A stretch of DNA of 34,179 bases, taken from assembly GCA_009783135.1 (NCBI GenBank), contig WRHS01000003.1, positions 1-34,179 of the forward strand, read 5' to 3'. Shown here piece after piece: positions 7,659 through 16,112 of this stretch. The first letter of the stretch is position 1; the number at the start of each line of letters is the position of its first letter. The notes below the pieces were generated by a model. That model saw nothing but the letters and a program-made list of their open reading frames with translations, had not been told where the DNA came from and did no database searches. This DNA comes from Dehalococcoidia bacterium (lineage in GTDB: Bacteria; Chloroflexota; Dehalococcoidia; Dehalococcoidales; UBA1222). A program made the translations under genes and the position numbers.

Positions 7659-8102
7659 TTAACTTTGGGGCTGGTCACCATAAATCAACTCAAAAAAAAG
7701 AATAACCATACTAAGTTGGGAGTCTTTTCCTAAATAATATATTAGATTTCCAGTACCGCAAAGAAATAATATTCTGTCATTTTTATTCTCATTATGATTC
7801 ACTATCATCTCAAGTATTTCAAGATGACCGCCTAACCTTATGAGAGTAGTTTTAACAGTCGATAGCCTGTTATGAAAATCTCCTATATCATCATTTTTTT
7901 CGTATGGTATTAAGGGTGAGTTATTTTCTAGCAATTCAGCTATTTCATATAATTTGTTACATGTGTCACAAGTTGGTTTTTTACTATCACCATGCCTAAA
8001 CAACGATTTAATCCGAAATCCTCGTTTTGAAACCAGTGACTTTCCGCAAACTTTGCATGATACGCTCATGAAATACTTCCACTTCCTTCTTCTACTGCTC
8101 AA
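7659..8102 (-). CDS. Hypothetical protein with two CxxC motifs (start may be ATG 8069)
   Basis: CKVCGK ... CDTCNK; co-oriented and immediately downstream of the S subunit. Confidence 0.45.
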   Translation of the reverse strand: MSSRRRKWKYFMSVSCKVCGKSLVSKRGFRIKSLFRHGDSKKPTCDTCNKLYEIAELLENNSPLIPYEKNDDIGDFHNRLSTVKTTLIRLGGHLEILEMIVNHNENKNDRILFLCGTGNLIYYLGKDSQLSMVILFFELIYGDQPQS

Positions 8103-8130: not shown

Positions 8131-9561
8131 TTACAGTGCCCTGTTTTCCAACCATTTCATTGCCATTTCTTCTCCATCTTCAATTGCCATTTCGACAGCT
8201 AGTTTTGCAGAATTAAGCAAATATTCGGATTGTCTGCGAAGTTCAAATGACTGCTGTACATCAATTGCGATTTTATGTTGAACTGATTTAGCAACTAAAG
8301 GAATGACAAATTTCTGTATGTCTTTTGGATAAATATAAGGCTGAGCAGAAGCACTTTTCCATTTCTCTGCTTGCATTCGACCAATAAAGGAATTAAGAGC
8401 GACGCCAAGATATATGAGGTCAACCTTTTTCTTGTCTGCTCTAATTATCGTTATGAAACTCCCTGCCATTGATGGTGTTTCTACAAAATAGTTGTGACAA
8501 TAACCAATATTGGCTCCAACAGAATAATACAGAATATCGTGCATGCGTGAGACGTATTCGCTATTTGCATCTGCAAATTCTTGTGAAGTATAAGGCTCGT
8601 CTTCTGCTGTCAGAAAGGAATAGTCGATTGACTTATCACCTATCCATTTTTGTGAAAAAACTTTTACTTTGCCGTTATCGATATATGGTGGCTGTTTCCC
8701 ATGGTCAATAAATGAAACCAACTCTAAAACGCTTGAATAATCCCCAGATTTGACTGCGTTTTCAACATCTTCGAATTTCTTTTGATAATACTCCGCGTCC
8801 AATCTCCCACTTGTTCCAAAACTCTCTGAAAATGACTTGATTGAAACGGGTTCGTTTGATGGAGTGAAATTTTCCATTCCAAGCGCCGAGAGTAAGCGCG
8901 ATTCAGCAGATGCATAGAGGTTGGCGGATTGCGATAATAAATTCTCAATTTTTGCAAAATGCACAGCTAGCTGTTTCTGGAATCTTTCAGAAGCTAGAGC
9001 AATTTTTAATTCACTTATAAGTCCCATATTGATATTGGGTTGTGCTGTAATAGTCTTAAAACGATTTATTTGATTTTGCCCATATCGCGTGTTTAGAAAT
9101 GTTGAAATATAATATGGCTCATACCCTTCCATAACGGACAATTTAGCTATAGCTTGATTTGAGCTGGAAACGAAATCCTTATCATAGACTGCAACTCTAC
9201 CTAGTGACCCCGCCATCGTAATAAGCACTTGGTTCTTAACGCAATGAGACTTGTGCAATAAAGCGTGGCTTTTATCATCAATATGTCTAATGTCTGACCA
9301 GTCGATGTAGTTATGGTTAATATTTTGAGTCATCAAAAAAGGATGCCCAATATCAGAAAACACAATTTCATTACACAGCGAATATGCTCCGAAATTTTGT
9401 ATCTTTGTTGTACAGTCTTTTAGGCGCTTATGAGGGATAGAAGAGAGATGCTTTTCTGTAAGAACATAATCTTTCTGGTATGTGTTTGCATCTATCCTAA
9501 AATCAATTATCTTTAAGCATTCGCTGATGTTGATTTCTACTGCTTCCAGCCCGCTCATCAA
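8131..9561 (-). CDS. Restriction-modification specificity (S) subunit with two TRDs; may be expressed as the frameshifted C-terminus of RM
   Basis: Duplicated architecture (RIDANTYQK / RLDAEYYQK; AQPNIN / AQPYIY; helical spacers); weak SD and a start codon buried in a hairpin. Confidence 0.85.
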   Translation of the reverse strand: MMSGLEAVEINISECLKIIDFRIDANTYQKDYVLTEKHLSSIPHKRLKDCTTKIQNFGAYSLCNEIVFSDIGHPFLMTQNINHNYIDWSDIRHIDDKSHALLHKSHCVKNQVLITMAGSLGRVAVYDKDFVSSSNQAIAKLSVMEGYEPYYISTFLNTRYGQNQINRFKTITAQPNINMGLISELKIALASERFQKQLAVHFAKIENLLSQSANLYASAESRLLSALGMENFTPSNEPVSIKSFSESFGTSGRLDAEYYQKKFEDVENAVKSGDYSSVLELVSFIDHGKQPPYIDNGKVKVFSQKWIGDKSIDYSFLTAEDEPYTSQEFADANSEYVSRMHDILYYSVGANIGYCHNYFVETPSMAGSFITIIRADKKKVDLIYLGVALNSFIGRMQAEKWKSASAQPYIYPKDIQKFVIPLVAKSVQHKIAIDVQQSFELRRQSEYLLNSAKLAVEMAIEDGEEMAMKWLENRAL

Positions 9562-9606
9562 TGCTTCATATTTTGAAGCGTCAAATGGCGGGCTTAGGCG
9601 AAAAAA
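9548..9606 (-). promoter_or_regulatory. Candidate programmed -1 frameshift signal (slippery heptamer plus stimulatory stem-loop)
   Basis: T_TTT_TTC at 9606-9600 in the RM frame, spacer GCCTA, then stem-loop 9594-9548. The -1 frame is open into S. Confidence 0.65.
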
Positions 9607-11588
9607 CTTAACTTTTCGCGTTTGGCAAATTCAATAAACGCTTCAGCAATTCCGTCTTGAGTTAAACCACCATGGTTAAAGAGATCATGATCCACATACA
9701 AATGACCATGTTTATCAATTTTAGCTTTGCCATTGTCATCTTTAACATGGATTTTTTCACCGCTATTGTCTTTACTTGATTTTTGCATTGTGGCAAAGAA
9801 AATAGGGTAATCGTCTTTGTGCGGGCATAATTCATCGTCCCATTTTTGAACAAATAAAACACTAGTTTTGGTCCCGGTATGCGGCTTGAATACATTGCCA
9901 TGAAGCCCGACTACCGCAAGGATGCGGCATTGCGCTGCAATATAATCACGGATTCGTTTATCGCTTGAGTTATTGAAGCGCCCTTGAGGTAATACAATAG
10001 CCATACGTCCGCCTGGCTTAAGGAAATTCAAATTTCTTTCTATGAATAATATGTCGCGTCCAACCTTGTTTTGCTGTTTACCCTTTTCGTTTTTTCCTAG
10101 TTCGTAACGTGAAAGAATAGTGCCTTCCTTGATATCTCCGGCAAAAGGTGGGTTTGCCGTTAGTAAGTCAAATGAAAACTGGCTAAAATCATCGTCATCC
10201 GCACCATTTGGGCGGATATCAAGAAGACGTTCAAACCCTGTATTGTAGTTTCGTTTCCATGTTCTACCACTAGTTGTTTCATTCCAGCGTCCGTAATCTA
10301 GCGTATTGAGATGCAATACATTGCTTTGTCCATCGCCAGCGATTAAATTTAATGTACGAGCAACACGCACAGTCTTTTCGTCGAAATCAATGGCAAAGAC
10401 ATGGTCGCGAACAAAAGAGCTTTCACGTTCTGTGCGCTTATCAGTGGTAAAACCTTCCCCTTCTGGTTGGTTCATTTCTTTGCGAATACCTTTCCAAACA
10501 TGGAAAATCGCATGTACTGGAAAGCCTGAACTACCCGCTGCGGTATCAATAATGTTTTCATGCTCTTGCGGGTTCATCATCTTGACACACATATCAATAA
10601 CATAGCGCGGCGTGAAGTATTGCCCTTTTTCGCCTTTTTGGGATTTGCTCAATAGGTATTCAAATGCGTCATCCACAACGTCAAGATTATTATTGAATAG
10701 CTTGATATCCTGTAGCGTAGAGATACAGATAGCCAAATGCGATGGTGTAAGTTGGATAGTATCGCTGTCAGAAAATATTCCAGGCCACTTCTTTTTTGCT
10801 GACTTGAAAAGCTCTTCGATTTTGGCTTTAAGTTCGCTTTCTGTGTCGCCACCATTGCGAAATTGTAAATAGTAATTAGTATCATTAGCTGCAATGAGTT
10901 CATCATATAGTTTTACAAAAATTAGCTTGAATACTTCTTCAAAACTATCTACACCCGCATTTGCAAGCACTTCATCCTCAATTTCAACAATGATATCGCG
11001 TAGTGCTTTTCCCTCGTTTGAAATTTTGTCGCGTTTCTTCAACTCTTCGTAATTTATTCGCTCGTTAAGTATGTCGGATAGCTTTTCAGATGCTTTGGGA
11101 ATATCGGATAACTGTTCAAAGTAATTTGGGTCTTTGCGGTTATAACAGGATATCTGCTGCCCATTTGTCCAAACGGCAATAGGCGCTCCAGTGGCGTTGG
11201 TGTACGATTTAAGCTGTTCCTTTCCGTCTTTGAGAAGAGGCTTCTTTGTTTCAACAATTATGTACGGAGCCGTAGTATTGAGTTTATCCATGACTACGAT
11301 ATCGGCGCGCTTTTCCTCCCGTCCAAAATTAACTGTATATTCCACTTGCAAGCGGTCTACAGGATAATTGTATTTATTTATCAAACGGTAAAGATATAAC
11401 TGCCTTACAATTTCTTCTGGAGTAAGTTTAATATCCTTGTTCCGGACGAGGCATTTGGTATAGGCAACATCACGGGCTTTACCAGCGACTTGCTTAAGGA
11501 AAATTCGAGCTTCAATGGCTGTTAACTCTTCGTCATTGAAAAGAGAGTACCCATAGCCTGAATTAAATAATACATCTGAAATATTCAT
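9594..11588 (-). CDS. Fused restriction endonuclease / N6-adenine methyltransferase (type IIB/IIG-like RM subunit)
   Basis: N-terminal HsdR-N-like PD-(D/E)xK nuclease (PEEIVRQ, RADIVV...IVETKK), then GQYFTPR, motif I DTAAGSSGF and motif IV NPPF. No helicase HsdR nearby. Confidence 0.88.
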   Translation of the reverse strand: MNISDVLFNSGYGYSLFNDEELTAIEARIFLKQVAGKARDVAYTKCLVRNKDIKLTPEEIVRQLYLYRLINKYNYPVDRLQVEYTVNFGREEKRADIVVMDKLNTTAPYIIVETKKPLLKDGKEQLKSYTNATGAPIAVWTNGQQISCYNRKDPNYFEQLSDIPKASEKLSDILNERINYEELKKRDKISNEGKALRDIIVEIEDEVLANAGVDSFEEVFKLIFVKLYDELIAANDTNYYLQFRNGGDTESELKAKIEELFKSAKKKWPGIFSDSDTIQLTPSHLAICISTLQDIKLFNNNLDVVDDAFEYLLSKSQKGEKGQYFTPRYVIDMCVKMMNPQEHENIIDTAAGSSGFPVHAIFHVWKGIRKEMNQPEGEGFTTDKRTERESSFVRDHVFAIDFDEKTVRVARTLNLIAGDGQSNVLHLNTLDYGRWNETTSGRTWKRNYNTGFERLLDIRPNGADDDDFSQFSFDLLTANPPFAGDIKEGTILSRYELGKNEKGKQQNKVGRDILFIERNLNFLKPGGRMAIVLPQGRFNNSSDKRIRDYIAAQCRILAVVGLHGNVFKPHTGTKTSVLFVQKWDDELCPHKDDYPIFFATMQKSSKDNSGEKIHVKDDNGKAKIDKHGHLYVDHDLFNHGGLTQDGIAEAFIEFAKREKLSFFA

Positions 11589-11936: not shown

Positions 11937-13544
11937 CTACCGCCACAAATTATTTATATCCTCTTCTATTTCCTTTGGATTTGGCTGCTCGGATGAGATT
12001 TCTTTATAGAATCCCTCCGTGCCGTATTCGCGCGGGCAGAAGGCAACCGGCATTGGTACGGCATGCCCGAAAATTAGCGCCTGTTGCTTGGCAGCCAGTC
12101 TGGCAAGCACGCCTTTAAGTCCGCTTTTGCCGGACGTGCCGGCAAGCACGCTGTCGATGTCGCGTTCGTTATCCAGCAAACAGGTGATTTTGGTTCCCAG
12201 CTGGCTCATGACCTCGGTATCAATGCCTGATGGTCTTTGGTCTATGACCAGCAGGGTGCAGTTATACTTGCGCATTTCGCGGGCGATGGTGCCGAAGATG
12301 GTTTGGGATGCCACCTCGGCATTAAGGAACTTGTGCGCCTCCTCAATGGTGATGACCAGCGGCTTGGGTGCGGCGCTGCCGTCGGCAATGGACCTTTCGG
12401 TGCGCTCGCGGTACTTGTCATAAATGCGCCTTGTCAGCAAATTGGCAACCAGTATATATGCCGCAATATCGGTAAATCGTCCGAATTCCAGCACCACATG
12501 GGTTCCGTTTTCCAGACGGGTCAGTATCTGGGATACGGCTTGCTGCTCTACGTGCGGCTGTGTGAAAGTCAGCCTTGTCAGGGATGTAAGCCCGCGCTTA
12601 AGTGACTGGAAGCTCCCTTCGTGGATATTCAGCGCATTCAGTACTTTGGCGCTGTCCTCGCCGTCCAGATTCAAAGTTTTATTTATCCAGTCTTTTCCGA
12701 AATGCTTGCGCAGTGAATAAGACGCATCAACCGCAAGGTCTGTAAGATTAAGCGTCTGGCGCAGCAATGAAATATCCTCGGGCTCAATTTCGTCGTAGCC
12801 TATTTTAGCTACGAAATCTGGCGTTACCATGCGTTGTCTGGCGTTTTCCTCATCCAGCGTGAAAATAGCCACCTTTGAGCCGAAAAGTTGTTTGAGGGCT
12901 TTTACGTCGCGCCCTTTTTCGTTGCGGTGTTTCCATCCGTATTCCGAGTGCATGTCGAAGACAAGATTTACGGCGGCGCTTTTTTGCAGAATACCAATCA
13001 GCAGCATGCGCGTGAGGAATGTTTTACCCGTGCCGCTCTTGCCGAAAATACCGTTGGAGCGCTTTACCATCTCCGGCAAATTAAGGCATAGCTTGGTTTC
13101 CATATCCAGCGGGTTGCCAATCCAGAACTTTTTGTCATCTTCCTTACCGAAAACAAGTTCAATATCCGCATCAGAGGAAAGCCCCACCGGAGAAAAGTGG
13201 CTTGGTATGGTCTTGACCGGCTGCGGTTCGTTTACATCCGGCTGTGCGGCGCCTCCTATAAGCAGATACGGCGTTACGGTCAGCATGCCGTAGGCTGAGG
13301 TGCCCGAAAGTACCTCGGCGCTGAAATCGTCATCGGCTGACGGCGGGAAAAAGGTCATATGCTGGTCGCTGGCATCCAGCTTTACATCGGTAATCATACC
13401 CAGAAAGCGGTGCTTTTGCCCCTCAATAGTTACGTAGTGCCCCACGACGACATCTTCAACTGACGTATGCCCGTCCATGCGCACGGCGACGCCGTCGCTC
13501 AGTGAGCCGGAAACCACAATGCCCAGTCTGCTCTCTCTATTCAT
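11937..13544 (-). CDS. herA: HerA-family ATPase/helicase with N-terminal HAS barrel
   Basis: Walker A GKSGTGKT, Walker B ITIEEAHKF, REMRKY, DQRPS; in an operon with nurA. Confidence 0.88.
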   Translation of the reverse strand: MNRESRLGIVVSGSLSDGVAVRMDGHTSVEDVVVGHYVTIEGQKHRFLGMITDVKLDASDQHMTFFPPSADDDFSAEVLSGTSAYGMLTVTPYLLIGGAAQPDVNEPQPVKTIPSHFSPVGLSSDADIELVFGKEDDKKFWIGNPLDMETKLCLNLPEMVKRSNGIFGKSGTGKTFLTRMLLIGILQKSAAVNLVFDMHSEYGWKHRNEKGRDVKALKQLFGSKVAIFTLDEENARQRMVTPDFVAKIGYDEIEPEDISLLRQTLNLTDLAVDASYSLRKHFGKDWINKTLNLDGEDSAKVLNALNIHEGSFQSLKRGLTSLTRLTFTQPHVEQQAVSQILTRLENGTHVVLEFGRFTDIAAYILVANLLTRRIYDKYRERTERSIADGSAAPKPLVITIEEAHKFLNAEVASQTIFGTIAREMRKYNCTLLVIDQRPSGIDTEVMSQLGTKITCLLDNERDIDSVLAGTSGKSGLKGVLARLAAKQQALIFGHAVPMPVAFCPREYGTEGFYKEISSEQPNPKEIEEDINNLWR

Positions 13545-14140
13545 GGTTTTATCCTTTCCAGTATGGCCTTTAGTCTGGCATAGTCCTGCCCAAGCAGTGC
13601 CGCCAGTTCCTTGCCCGCATTGACCAAAAAGGCCCGCGGGTCCTCCTGTGAGGCGCTCATCAGGCGCAGCACGGCGGCAATTAACTCATCCGACGGCGTT
13701 TCCGCCTTGGCGTTGACCAGCAGCGTCAAAAATGTGTAACAGCGGCTGAAGCCGGCAATTTCCTCGCTGCTGCATTCGTAAACAAAGCCGTGTAAACGTG
13801 CCGGACGCGGCGGCAGGTATTGATTCACTCGTCCGTCTCTCTTATGCCCTACAACCAGCGCGGCGAACTCGCTGCGCAGCAGCTTGACAAGCTGCGGATT
13901 TGCCTTGAAAACGGCCTCCTCCGAAGGCTCGTCCTTGCCGCGCGCTATGGGCTTGCGCCCGGGTTCTATTCCTTCGGTGAATGCCTGATATACCACGGCA
14001 TAAAGTTCGTTGTCGCCCTCGTTTGTTTTAACCAGTGTCCCAAGAGGCGGCAGGGAGTACAACTCATAACACTGGGCACAAAATGTTGTGCTGGATGCCT
14101 GGATAACCTCTCCTAAACGCGTCTGTGATAATTCTTGCAT
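13541..14140 (-). CDS. HAS-barrel-like protein of the nurA-herA operon
   Basis: SD GGAGG before ATG 14140; FCAQCYELYSLPPLGTLVK and QYLPPRPARLH; ATGA overlap with herA. Confidence 0.7.
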   Translation of the reverse strand: MQELSQTRLGEVIQASSTTFCAQCYELYSLPPLGTLVKTNEGDNELYAVVYQAFTEGIEPGRKPIARGKDEPSEEAVFKANPQLVKLLRSEFAALVVGHKRDGRVNQYLPPRPARLHGFVYECSSEEIAGFSRCYTFLTLLVNAKAETPSDELIAAVLRLMSASQEDPRAFLVNAGKELAALLGQDYARLKAILERIKP

Positions 14141-14171
14141 GTCTTGCCTCCATTCTGCTTTGCAGGTGAGT

Positions 14172-15377
14172 TCAAAGCCACTTTGTTTTTTTACTGCTGC
14201 TTTTTGCCGATGATGCGGAACTAATATGCTCATCGGCCAGCCACGTTGCCAGCAGTTGCTGGAAATTTTCCCGGTCGGAGGCGCTCACCACGGCCTGCTC
14301 GTGCGCCTCAGACAGTGCCACGGGATAACCGTTGCCGCGCTGGCACTGGTCGAAAATCAAAGCGTGAGTCAGATCAAGCTTTTGTTTGTCACGTGCGATC
14401 CACTGCGGGATTTCCACGCGTGCGATTTCATCCTCCAGTTTGAGATAAAAGAAATGCACGGCGTGTCCGGCGTATTTTTCCCTGACGATTTTTGCCTGAC
14501 TGGTAAAAAGGGCCGAGCGTTCCCCTGTGACGAGCAACTCAAAGAATAATTCCTGATCCTGCACGCCGGAAAGAACGTCGCAAGGGCGCTGCCCGACGGG
14601 CTTGTACCCGCAGTGCCTTGAGCAGTCAGCCGTATTGTTCGGGCATATGAGCAGTCGCAGCGTATTGGCCACATTTACCGAGCGCGGGAAGCTGATATAG
14701 CTTGCAAGTGACAGGGGTTGTTTTTGCGCCAGTGCTTGCATTTCATCGAGATATTTCATAAAGCCGTTGTCCAGCAGTTCGGTTACCACGAAATCGGGGA
14801 ATTCCTTGCCGGATAGCTGCCACATAATCAGAGAGCCATCGATGACTGCCAGCGCCGGCTGCCCCGTTGGCAGTTCGGTTGCCATTTCCTTTAAGTGGCG
14901 GCATTCGTCCACCGAGCGCTTGAGATTTAGCAGGGGTCCTTCAACCATCTGCACCTGATGACCGGATGCTATAACCGTGTCGTTGTCGCCTGCGTATAAC
15001 AGAGGCAAACTCTCCAGTTTGGCTTCGGTCTTTTGTCCGTAATCCAGCCGCACCTGCCCTATATTAATCAGGTAACAGCGTGTTGACTGGTGCCGGTCAA
15101 CGTCAATCTGTGAGCCGTCCGTTGCAATGATGCTGAAATCCTCCGGAATGGAAATTGGCGGCACATGTGTGTAAAGAGGCTCTACCGGTCCCGCCAAAAG
15201 AAACGGGGAGGTATTCAGGCTTTGGGCGACTTTTTCCTTTAGATTGGTGAATTCGGGTTCATTGAGCGCAAGCAGACTGCGGGCTTTTTCCAGTCGGGCG
15301 CCTTTGTCGTGACCGCCGACTTTAAGCTGCTCCACCATGTTTTGCATTTGTGCGGCTACGTAATTTAGGTTCAGCAT
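14172..15377 (-). CDS. nurA: NurA-family 5'-3' nuclease
   Basis: ATDGSQI, IDGSLI, ARVEIP and GYPVALSEAHEQAVV motifs. Confidence 0.9.
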   Translation of the reverse strand: MLNLNYVAAQMQNMVEQLKVGGHDKGARLEKARSLLALNEPEFTNLKEKVAQSLNTSPFLLAGPVEPLYTHVPPISIPEDFSIIATDGSQIDVDRHQSTRCYLINIGQVRLDYGQKTEAKLESLPLLYAGDNDTVIASGHQVQMVEGPLLNLKRSVDECRHLKEMATELPTGQPALAVIDGSLIMWQLSGKEFPDFVVTELLDNGFMKYLDEMQALAQKQPLSLASYISFPRSVNVANTLRLLICPNNTADCSRHCGYKPVGQRPCDVLSGVQDQELFFELLVTGERSALFTSQAKIVREKYAGHAVHFFYLKLEDEIARVEIPQWIARDKQKLDLTHALIFDQCQRGNGYPVALSEAHEQAVVSASDRENFQQLLATWLADEHISSASSAKSSSKKTKWL

Positions 15378-15458: not shown

Positions 15459-16070
15459 TTATTGTAGGGTTTCTCCCGTGACTGAACTGGAGTTATCATT
15501 TTTTACGCCTTGGTCTAATGCCGCAGCCGGTGGGGTCAATGCCAAATTGTGTTCTTTAGCATACTCGATGCACTTTTCCTCTAGCAGCTTGAAGTTGCAG
15601 CAAAGGTATTTGAATTTTCTGACTTGTCTGTCGGCGCTATTCCTATAAACCGGATTAGTAACCTTATCATAAACTTCGGCCGCCATAGCCCTAATTCTTT
15701 CAGGGCTATTTCCTTCACGGCAATAATAGTATTCTTCGTTTAACAATGACCTATAACTAACGTCCTGCTCATTTTTAATAATTTTTCTTTTTTCTAAACC
15801 ATACGGTATAGGCACCATATACTGAAAACAAACATTTGAAATCTTTTTCCCGCTTCTCTCTTGGATTACAAAGTTTGTCGGCGTATTTCTGATATGAGAA
15901 GAAACCGGTGCAAAATACCTAATACCTTTTTCTGTTTCAAACACCACTCCGCATAGAAATTTGTTGTGTGGGCTTGTAGTTGAATAGTCGAATTTAGGTA
16001 TCCTTGGTTCGAATTTTCTCAGATAATCTGCGTATGCCGCATCTATGTCATAAAAGTCTAAACTGCTCAT
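15459..16070 (-). CDS. toxN: Type III toxin-antitoxin ToxN/AbiQ-family endoribonuclease toxin
   Basis: FYDIDAAYADYLRKFEPRIP, KFLCGVV, YFAPVSS, FQYMVPIP, YRSLLNEEY, CCNFKLLEEKCIEY; preceded by promoter, pseudoknot and terminator. Confidence 0.85.
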   Translation of the reverse strand: MSSLDFYDIDAAYADYLRKFEPRIPKFDYSTTSPHNKFLCGVVFETEKGIRYFAPVSSHIRNTPTNFVIQERSGKKISNVCFQYMVPIPYGLEKRKIIKNEQDVSYRSLLNEEYYYCREGNSPERIRAMAAEVYDKVTNPVYRNSADRQVRKFKYLCCNFKLLEEKCIEYAKEHNLALTPPAAALDQGVKNDNSSSVTGETLQ

Positions 16071-16080
16071 CGCATAGTCC

Positions 16081-16112
16081 ATAAACAACGAGGGCGACGT
16101 ATGTCGCCCTCG
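16081..16112 (-). terminator. Intrinsic terminator between the antitoxin RNA and the toxin
   Basis: CGAGGGCGAC-ATAC-GTCGCCCTCG followed by TTGTTTAT. Confidence 0.85.

Follow-up and report, generated by a model that had tools for sequence, protein, structure and literature searches.

A probable conserved -1 ribosomal frameshift between the RM and S genes of a BcgI-like restriction-modification family

We analysed a stretch of 34,179 nt from a Dehalococcoidia bacterium (contig WRHS01000003.1 of assembly GCA_009783135.1, positions 1 to 34,179; hereafter the window). It carries on its minus strand a gene for a restriction-modification subunit, RM, which is followed in the -1 frame by a gene for a specificity subunit, S. 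We propose that a conserved and functional -1 ribosomal frameshift at the end of RM yields two proteins, RM itself (664 aa) and a predicted trans-frame product RM-S (661 + 491 = 1152 aa), and we put the probability of this reading at about 0.8. Comparison with related loci indicates that the cassette of slippery heptamer, spacing and downstream hairpin is under selection at the nucleotide level, and that the linker between the two parts is under selection at the protein level. Judged by its architecture, the module is a BcgI-like Type IIB (or IIG-like) RM plus S pair, an assignment that covers the domain layout.

The elements of the putative frameshift site lie close together on the minus strand (Table 1). 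RM ends in AAG TTA AGT TTT TTC GCC TAA, and a spacer of 5 nt (GCCUA) separates its heptamer from a candidate stimulatory hairpin. The hairpin has a minimum free energy of -27.1 kcal/mol, compared with -15.8 +/- 3.0 kcal/mol for 200 shuffled sequences (z -3.83; one shuffle was equally stable). The -1 frame is open from a TGA eight codons ahead of FF, and its translation into S runs FFRLSPPFDASKYEALMSGLEAVEI. The heptamer, the stop codon, the 5-nt spacer, the hairpin, the open -1 frame and an S start codon buried in the hairpin had been named in an earlier note made from the letters of the window (the original prediction); all of them are present, and their coordinates were correct. The same note had raised the possibility that the run of six T residues was a homopolymer error for seven. 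Contigs assembled independently from two sequencing runs (Logan, X1 and X2) argue otherwise: they match positions 9300-9900 with 0 other letters and 0 gaps, and both contig sets have T6, not T7. X1 and X2 are possibly the source samples, so that the match excludes an assembly slip, not a strain polymorphism.

A side observation concerns run X2, in which the contigs break at 9581-9610, a segment that covers the heptamer and the 5' arm of the hairpin. This break gives no evidence either way on the RNA. A record of 49 nt from X2 shares 9581-9610 and, on the RM side, differs over its next 19 letters, which suggests that the X2 sample holds a second RM allele with the same junction sequence.

With the C-terminal half of RM as query, 8000 proteins were retrieved at E <= 1e-10, and the 120 best of these (71-87% identical) were inspected. 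The great majority (110/120) stop 0-1 residue after [LF]SFF, and two stop five residues after it. The other eight continue via a linker (...SFF-xxxx-PFDAxxYxALMSGLEAVEI...) into an S domain; five of these are complete, with a length of 1134-1158 aa. No close RM homologue was found in 40 genomes related to that of the window (best match E 4.6e-13), and the module has therefore spread horizontally. For a comparison of the junctions at the DNA level, the window was combined with the best 80 of 268 confirmed relatives from species-representative genomes (RM 60-74% identical), giving 81 junctions. The hosts of these 80 loci include Clostridia, Negativicutes, Streptococcus, Synergistaceae, Treponema, Flavobacteriia, Bacteroidales, Akkermansia, Desulfovibrionaceae, Sulfurimonas, Mariprofundaceae, Methylococcaceae, Burkholderiaceae and Vampirovibrionales, among others.

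An in-phase X_XXY_YYZ heptamer occupies the homologous position in all 81 junctions. In 63 of them it is U_UUU_UUY, encoded by NNT TTT TTY (T-type), and in the other 18 it is G_GGA_AAG, encoded by NNG GGA AAG (G-type), which is also the heptamer of phage lambda G/GT. Both U_UU.U_UU.C and G_GG.A_AA.G are counted among the 'more efficient' heptamers of insertion sequence (IS) elements (PMC4066793, in excerpt). The G-type junctions were found in Flavobacteriia, a Streptococcus, Mariprofundaceae, Sulfurimonas and Vampirovibrionales. Their RM proteins end in ...LSF-V-G-K-(x)-stop, and the position of the stop, the spacer and the hairpin are as in the T-type.

When the chance of the required codons was calculated from the codon usage of each gene, the expectation was 0.26 for the T-type and 0.011 for the G-type; the codons were observed in 63/63 and 18/18 junctions, respectively. 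The amino acid encoded before GGA in the G-type varies (GTG, CCG, CTG, TCG), and the third base of this codon is always G. Two other conserved Phe codons nearby served as a control and are TTC in 10 and 9 of 79 genes, compared with the first Phe codon of the heptamer, which is TTT in all 63 T-type junctions and TTC in none. Two unrelated slippery sequences at one position would be hard to explain except by selection for slipperiness.

The reading frames around the heptamer are equally uniform. The zero-frame stop follows the heptamer after one codon in 58 junctions and after 0 codons in 22, and it is absent in one. S lies in the -1 frame, open through the heptamer, in 80/81 junctions, the exception being an in-frame fusion (L016). 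The original prediction had expected both the heptamer in the same phase and S in the -1 frame among homologues; the phase held in all 81 junctions, and the frame in all but L016. From the heptamer onward, the -1 open reading frame (ORF) spans 466-727 codons in 73/81 junctions and runs off the end of the locus in four (L014, L058, L086, L088); four are shorter (L015, 80 codons; L016, 3; L027, 143; L090, 295). Upstream of the heptamer, the open stretch of the -1 frame has a median length of 8 codons and a maximum of 50. At two loci (L014, L042) a -1-frame stop abuts the heptamer, so that entry into the -1 frame must occur at the heptamer there.

One of the shorter frames is worth a separate remark. 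At L027, from a Gemmiger metagenome-assembled genome, the -1 frame keeps the conserved linker as far as ...EAKY and then continues in unrelated sequence to its full 143 codons; the S part appears to have been replaced or rearranged.

This uniformity bears on the explanation that the window simply holds a broken fusion gene or a sequencing error, that is, a pseudogene with a stop and a frameshift. Set against fused relatives of the same clade (...SFFA[D/Y]ARPFDA...), the zero frame of the window does read A-stop-A-R and then has one base fewer. Such an accident would, however, have to account for an arrangement common to 80 of the 81 junctions and for the 110 of 120 close homologues that likewise end 0-1 residue after LSFF. 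The S ORF, moreover, is intact over 491 codons, as are those of most relatives, and the T6 run and the junction are identical, with 0 differences, in the two contig sets. We regard a pseudogene as hardly credible.

Conservation extends to the hairpin. For a register test, the 5' side was anchored at the heptamer end + 5 and the 3' side at the second base of the Leu codon in the G-L-E motif, so that pairing was not used in placing the arms. The first 11 pairs were scored in the 75 distinct junctions among 78 (L016, L027 and L086 were left out). In register, 779 of 825 cells held standard pairs, as against 29-50% when the register was shifted by +/-1-3. The sixth pair may serve as an illustration: it is AT in 35 junctions, TA in 21, GC in 13, CG in 3 and GT in 2.

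The 27 distinct junctions that make up the 44-nt class align without gaps and give a 13-bp helix that is 97.2% paired and includes 5 compensatory pairs; slid registers on the same alignment were 33-58% paired. The covariation score of the whole structure was 0.265, compared with 0.194 +/- 0.014 for shuffles, none of which reached it (0/500), and RNAalifold, unaided, returned the same 13 pairs. Some of the compensations change amino acids on both sides. At L077, GCCC/GGGC has become GCUC/GAGC and a conserved Gly has become Glu; at L090, the codon in the place of the 'Met' is UCG and pairs with the 5' arm. A covarying hairpin at a fixed spacing of 5 nt, as originally predicted, is thus a feature of the homologues as well. 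An inner helix (alignment columns 29-31 with 38-40) was rejected as a conserved feature, being 43% paired, and Rfam gave no family match at E <= 1 for positions 9450-9700 of the window.

RM-S could in principle also arise from transcriptional slippage, with RNA polymerase adding a U on the T6 run and a minority of the mRNA then carrying RM and S in one frame. Homopolymer runs are known slippage sites, and runs of T6-T8 are present in the window and 62 other junctions; T6 is a short run for this process, which counts against it. UUUUUUU is avoided in genes, possibly owing to transcriptional slippage (PMC4066793, in excerpt). The 18 junctions with G_GGA_AAG, however, contain no run that would be long enough, which excludes homopolymer slippage as the common mechanism. 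Nor would slippage require the run to keep a constant phase with the RM frame, as it does in 63/63 junctions, and a covarying hairpin placed 5 nt away matches the geometry of a ribosomal frameshift. We consider transcriptional slippage very unlikely.

The eight fused proteins among the best 120 hits raise the question of what becomes of the cassette when no shift is needed to make RM-S. The junctions of ten fused proteins (alignment A1) served as the seed for a scan of metagenomes, and of the best 80 of 452 confirmed relatives 79 were scored; the remaining locus (L099) lacked the motif. The distinct junctions comprised 32 fused and 37 split ones, a ratio that is no frequency because the seed enriches fused forms. 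An in-phase heptamer is kept in 32/32 fused junctions (24 T7, 5 T6C and 3 G_GGA_AAG). Here it is the -1 frame that ends soon after the heptamer: a -1 stop follows after 0 codons in 21/32, within 2 codons in 28/32 and within 6 codons in all 32. With an immediate -1 stop, a shift in a fused gene would release RM ending in ...SFF, just as normal termination does in the split operons. L016, the in-frame fusion in the first set, is arranged like these genes, with FFR-stop in the -1 frame.

The hairpin of the fused junctions pairs best when it starts 6 nt past the heptamer (182/224 cells). Nine fused loci have an insertion in the linker that encodes a different compact, perfect and GC-rich hairpin right after the heptamer, about 10-60 nt past it (L101, L110, L113, L119; L116, L121, L130, L142; L123). 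From their sequences, these inserted hairpins replace or add to the usual long-range stem. The 37 split junctions of the metagenome set, with 241/252 cells paired at 5 nt, resemble the species-genome set and include a subclass in which the zero-frame stop lies 7 codons downstream. Many in-frame fusions were also seen in other branches among 50%-identity representatives (P0122, P0123, P0125-P0127, P0129, P0130 and others), where their share is no frequency either, since such representatives tend to be the longest members of their clusters. In-frame RM-S fusions are viable in nature, and close relatives include a scattered mixture of split and fused forms. That the two architectures are linked, as had been suggested for the window, is borne out by the fusions among its close relatives, and these have kept the cassette.

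The interspersed forms would also fit a phase variation at the DNA level, in which the T-run is lengthened or shortened by one base as the DNA is replicated and a lineage toggles between the split (RM + S) and the fused (RM-S) state. One extra T in a split T7 junction would give an in-frame fusion with the same linker, and fused proteins such as P0130 (...SFFNLSPSFDAERY...) resemble the -1-frame linker of split junctions. Runs of T6-T8 are, however, short for frequent slipped-strand mispairing, and the G_GGA_AAG clade also contains split and fused forms (L107, L112, L137). Most fused forms differ from the split ones in the spacer and not in the length of the run, and the two contig sets show T6 only at the junction of the window. 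Such toggling seems to us improbable in the extreme.

A different interpretation keeps the frameshift and regards heptamer and hairpin as a reversible device for making two products, in which the shift would yield RM-S from a split locus and RM from a fused one. This extension is tentative, and we hold it to be slightly more doubtful than probable. If it is true and the efficiency of the shift is near one half, split and fused layouts would be equivalent, which would explain the repeated evolutionary flips between them. The single-chain RMS enzymes of the family would then also escape the published puzzle of one catalytic unit facing two half-sites, as free RM would always be made.

The linker provides evidence of another kind. 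In the window it lies upstream of the annotated S start. The nucleotide entropy at the three -1 codon positions of the linker is 0.48/0.34/0.85 in the class of 38 sequences and 0.74/0.50/1.17 in the class of 27. The excess at the third position in both classes agrees with the coding conservation in the -1 frame that had been predicted. Phe and Leu of the linker are invariant in both classes, Pro is invariant in one class and nearly so in the other, Tyr is present in 38/38 and 26/27 sequences, and the conserved residues vary only synonymously. In the numbering of the -1 product, F8 and L16 are invariant among relatives and Y13 is nearly so. These patterns indicate that selection on the segment before the supposed start acts on a protein encoded in the -1 frame.

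An AlphaFold model of the -1 product, built from the heptamer onward (491 aa) with a 70-sequence alignment, has a mean predicted local distance difference test score (pLDDT) of 92.1. It shows two alpha/beta domains and two long helices (207-241 and 440-477). Residues 1-9 are modelled as coil (block pLDDT 64) and residues 10-18 as a helix (block pLDDT about 82) that passes through Met17, so that an S protein begun at Met17 would, by this model, lose most of the helix. Across 78 junctions, the codon homologous to the ATG of the window is ATG in 42, TTG in 19, TTA in 10, ATA in 4, and CTG, GTG and TCG in one each. In seven loci (L017, L040, L041, L043, L061, L073, L090), none of the codons ATG, GTG and TTG occurs from the heptamer to the G-L-E motif. 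On the sequences compared, the S start codon appears to be dispensable in relatives.

We therefore picture expression of the module as follows. Most ribosomes would end at the UAA and release RM. Some would pause with UUU in the P site and UUC in the A site, the stop codon being next for the A site and the hairpin standing 5 nt downstream at the mRNA entrance. Both Phe-tRNAs would then re-pair one base back, and the shifted ribosomes would read the 14-residue linker into the specificity part to give RM-S. The hairpin may also keep the internal AUG closed. The active enzyme would consist of one RM and one RM-S, equivalent to the (RM)2S of BcgI and BsaXI.

Published work makes this composition reasonable. 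BsaXI is a (RM)2S heterotrimer by cryo-electron microscopy (PMC11997821, in excerpt), BcgI has 2RM:1S (PMC4081073, in excerpt), and an engineered M-S fusion of EcoKI is active only with added free M (PMC3510504, in excerpt). By analogy with these results RM plus RM-S would be a complete unit, and a 2 RM : 1 S rationale for the frameshift is plausible.

Several points weigh against the frameshift. The case for it is one of sequence comparison, and the loci compared are kin and not independent draws. The RM ORF of the window has 10 in-phase X_XXY_YYZ heptamers within its 664 codons, so that the window taken by itself is weak evidence; the comparative data on the junctions are nevertheless far beyond chance. 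As 'SFF' is also a conserved C-terminal peptide, part of the conservation of the T-run is at the protein level. The rationale from subunit numbers has its own counterexample in TstI, a single-chain Type IIB enzyme of another size class, which is a homogeneous homotetramer of the full-length chain (PMC4027205, in excerpt); free RM is thus no general requirement for RMS enzymes. Finally, the codon in question is ATG in the window, with a TTG before it, and ATG or TTG stands there in 61/78 junctions. With this AUG present, a separate S could be made by initiation after melting of the hairpin, and this could coexist with frameshifting or dominate over it.

In its strict form this last point amounts to two ordinary genes with hairpin-gated translational coupling: S would be made only from its own AUG (9558), exposed as terminating ribosomes melt the hairpin, and the T-run would be mere codons of the conserved SFF tail. 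The layout suits such coupling, with the AUG placed inside the 3' arm of the hairpin and the RM stop adjoining its 5' arm, and hsdM and hsdS of EcoKI are translationally coupled across a frame change (PMC3510504, in excerpt). Coupling leaves unexplained, however, why G_GGA_AAG occurs in 18/18 loci of the second clade against an expectation of 0.011, why the distance between heptamer and stem is fixed at 5 nt, and why the linker upstream of the AUG is conserved as protein. It also has to contend with the seven loci that lack ATG, GTG or TTG, with the predicted helix 10-18 running through Met17, and with the retention of the cassette in 32/32 fused genes, which have no separate S. We think it unlikely that coupling is the whole explanation, and we retain the -1 ribosomal frameshift as the preferred one.

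The domain content of the two proteins is consistent with these roles. RM contains the Pfam domains HSDR_N_2 (residues 57-164, E 4e-30) and N6_Mtase (302-627, E 4e-32) as well as Eco57I, and its sequence includes ...RADIVV...IIVETKK..., presumably the catalytic motif of the nuclease domain. It matches the PADLOC model PDLC03034 ('Type I methyltransferase') end to end with 1039 bits, and its nearest solved structure is RM.BsaXI (8w0p, E 1.7e-26). S has two Methylase_S stretches in Pfam and is assigned by PADLOC to Specificity_I ('Type I specificity'). A second in-phase heptamer, the highly shift-prone A_AAA_AAG, was noticed at RM codon 265 (...SAKKKW...). The peptide at this place is not conserved (relatives have ...AKRKW... 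or ...AKDKW...), and this heptamer is therefore probably incidental.

Table 1. Features of the RM-S module and of the neighbouring genes in the window
Feature	Position	Strand	Remarks
RM gene, zero frame, 664 aa	11588-9594	-	N-terminal PD-(D/E)xK-type nuclease and gamma-class N6-adenine methyltransferase; C-terminus ...AKREKLSFFA-stop
Slippery heptamer (candidate) U_UUU_UUC	9606-9600	-	X_XXY_YYZ phase of the RM frame, codons AG[U UUU UUC]
Zero-frame stop UAA	9596-9594	-	One codon past the heptamer; last A is the first base of the hairpin
Stimulatory hairpin (candidate), 47 nt	9594-9548	-	Starts 5 nt past the heptamer
Hairpin, outer stem	9594-9588 with 9554-9548	-	AGCCCGC with GCGGGCU
Hairpin, middle stem	9587-9584 with 9559-9556	-	CAUU with GAUG
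Hairpin, inner stem	9579-9574 with 9568-9563	-	GCUUCA with UGAAGC
Hairpin, loop	9573-9569	-	AAAUA
Predicted trans-frame linker, ...F-RLSPPFDASKYEAL in the -1 frame	9559-9599	-	Upstream of the annotated S start
AUG annotated as S start	9558-9556	-	Within the 3' hairpin arm; not preceded by a Shine-Dalgarno-like purine run
Annotated S ORF, 475 aa	ATG 9558 to 8131	-	-1 frame relative to RM
-1-frame ORF from heptamer to S stop, 491 codons + stop	8131-9606	-	Specificity part, two target-recognition domains and two long helices
147-aa ORF	7659-8102	-	Just downstream of S; no Pfam/NCBIfam family; weak PADLOC Cas10 match, E 1.9e-4
HerA-like ATPase (DUF87 / HAS-barrel)	11937-13544	-	Upstream of RM; weak mad8 match, E 2.7e-12
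230-aa ORF	13541-14233	-	No family
NurA-domain protein	14172-15377	-	
ToxN/AbiQ-like type III toxin ORF	15459-16088	-	Pfam ToxN_toxin E 2.4e-28; PADLOC AbiQ

The module is flanked by five further ORFs on the same strand. Positions 11937-15377 look like a HerA-NurA-type defence pair. In the segment 16050-16420, upstream of the ToxN-like ORF, TRF found no ToxI-type tandem repeats; two weak two-copy repeats of 16-17 nt are present. When these five ORFs, and only these, were sought in the 2.5-kb flanks of the 80 related loci, none was found there. Since the neighbours do not recur beside related loci, the two-gene module appears to be self-contained, with no sign among them of a separate HsdR motor or another obligatory partner gene.

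If the proposed frameshift is real, it would add a large, phylum-spanning family of defence genes to the conserved -1 frameshifts. The family would also amount to a natural experiment, in which two interchangeable heptamers, replaced or inserted hairpins, and a short or a long default product occur among close relatives. For restriction enzymology it offers a mechanism that would set the ratio of RM to S. In current annotation each of these loci appears as two genes, an 'N-6 DNA methylase' and an S whose start is doubtful, and expression from separate clones would miss the fusion product.

To our knowledge, conserved -1 frameshifting is rare in bacterial genes outside insertion sequences and phages, with dnaX as the textbook case. 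Our search found no published frameshift between RM or M and S genes; the supplementary cluster tables of GeneTack and Sharma 2014, which lay outside that search, may list the family. The excerpts consulted of the GeneTack paper (PMC3711429), a 2016 recoding review, Sharma 2014 and a 2025 preprint do not mention an RM/S frameshift.

Among known systems, MADS supplies the best NCBIfam names, MAD2 for RM (E 1.8e-93) and MAD5 for S (E 4.5e-33). The scores lie far below the cut-offs of these models (314 bits against 720 for MAD2, 114.8 against 400 for MAD5) and the neighbours are not conserved. On these grounds we rejected both an identity with MADS and a multi-gene MADS-like or HerA/NurA-linked system. 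The Type IIB enzymes BcgI and BsaXI are closer in design. They have an RM subunit that combines nuclease and N6-adenine methyltransferase and an S subunit with two recognition domains, and their published ratio of 2 RM : 1 S would be met by RM + RM-S. Cleavage on either side of a bipartite site is likewise a published property of BcgI and BsaXI only. They differ in that S is described as a separate subunit, and a frameshift is unmentioned in the excerpts of their papers that were consulted. BsaXI, at 916 aa, also carries knob and paddle inserts, whereas the 664-aa RM is without them. The predicted RM-S resembles the engineered HsdM-HsdS fusion of EcoKI, in which the C-terminus of M is joined to the N-terminus of S and which is functional and needs extra free M (PMC3510504, in excerpt). 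That fusion (Roberts et al. 2012) was engineered by mutations that remove the frame change, and it belongs to a Type I system whose HsdR is separate; here, the ribosome is proposed to make the fusion from wild-type mRNA beside the free subunit.

As for the mechanism, the orfA-orfB transposase genes of the IS3/IS1 family and the phage lambda G/GT genes likewise use a -1 shift near the end of the upstream ORF to produce a minor fusion protein. Their downstream ORF has no efficient start of its own, a feature to which S may be likened. Unlike them, the present genes encode restriction-modification subunits and no mobile element or phage gene, and the family includes relatives with reversed polarity. 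In E. coli dnaX, a programmed -1 frameshift takes place at the heptamer A_AAA_AAG; the heptamers found here are U_UUU_UUY or G_GGA_AAG instead. The likeness to dnaX (tau/gamma) lies in a cellular gene with an in-phase heptamer and a downstream hairpin, from which one mRNA gives two products in a set ratio (PMC4066793, in excerpt). The fused relatives come closest to it: all 32 stop the -1 frame within 0-6 codons, so that normal reading would give the long and frameshifting the short product. The window and most of its relatives have the opposite polarity, with the short product from normal reading and the long one from the shift. Taken together, the comparison argues that what we describe is very probably a -1 frameshift of the dnaX/IS3 type in a new and widespread gene family, with two interchangeable heptamers and both polarities represented among relatives.

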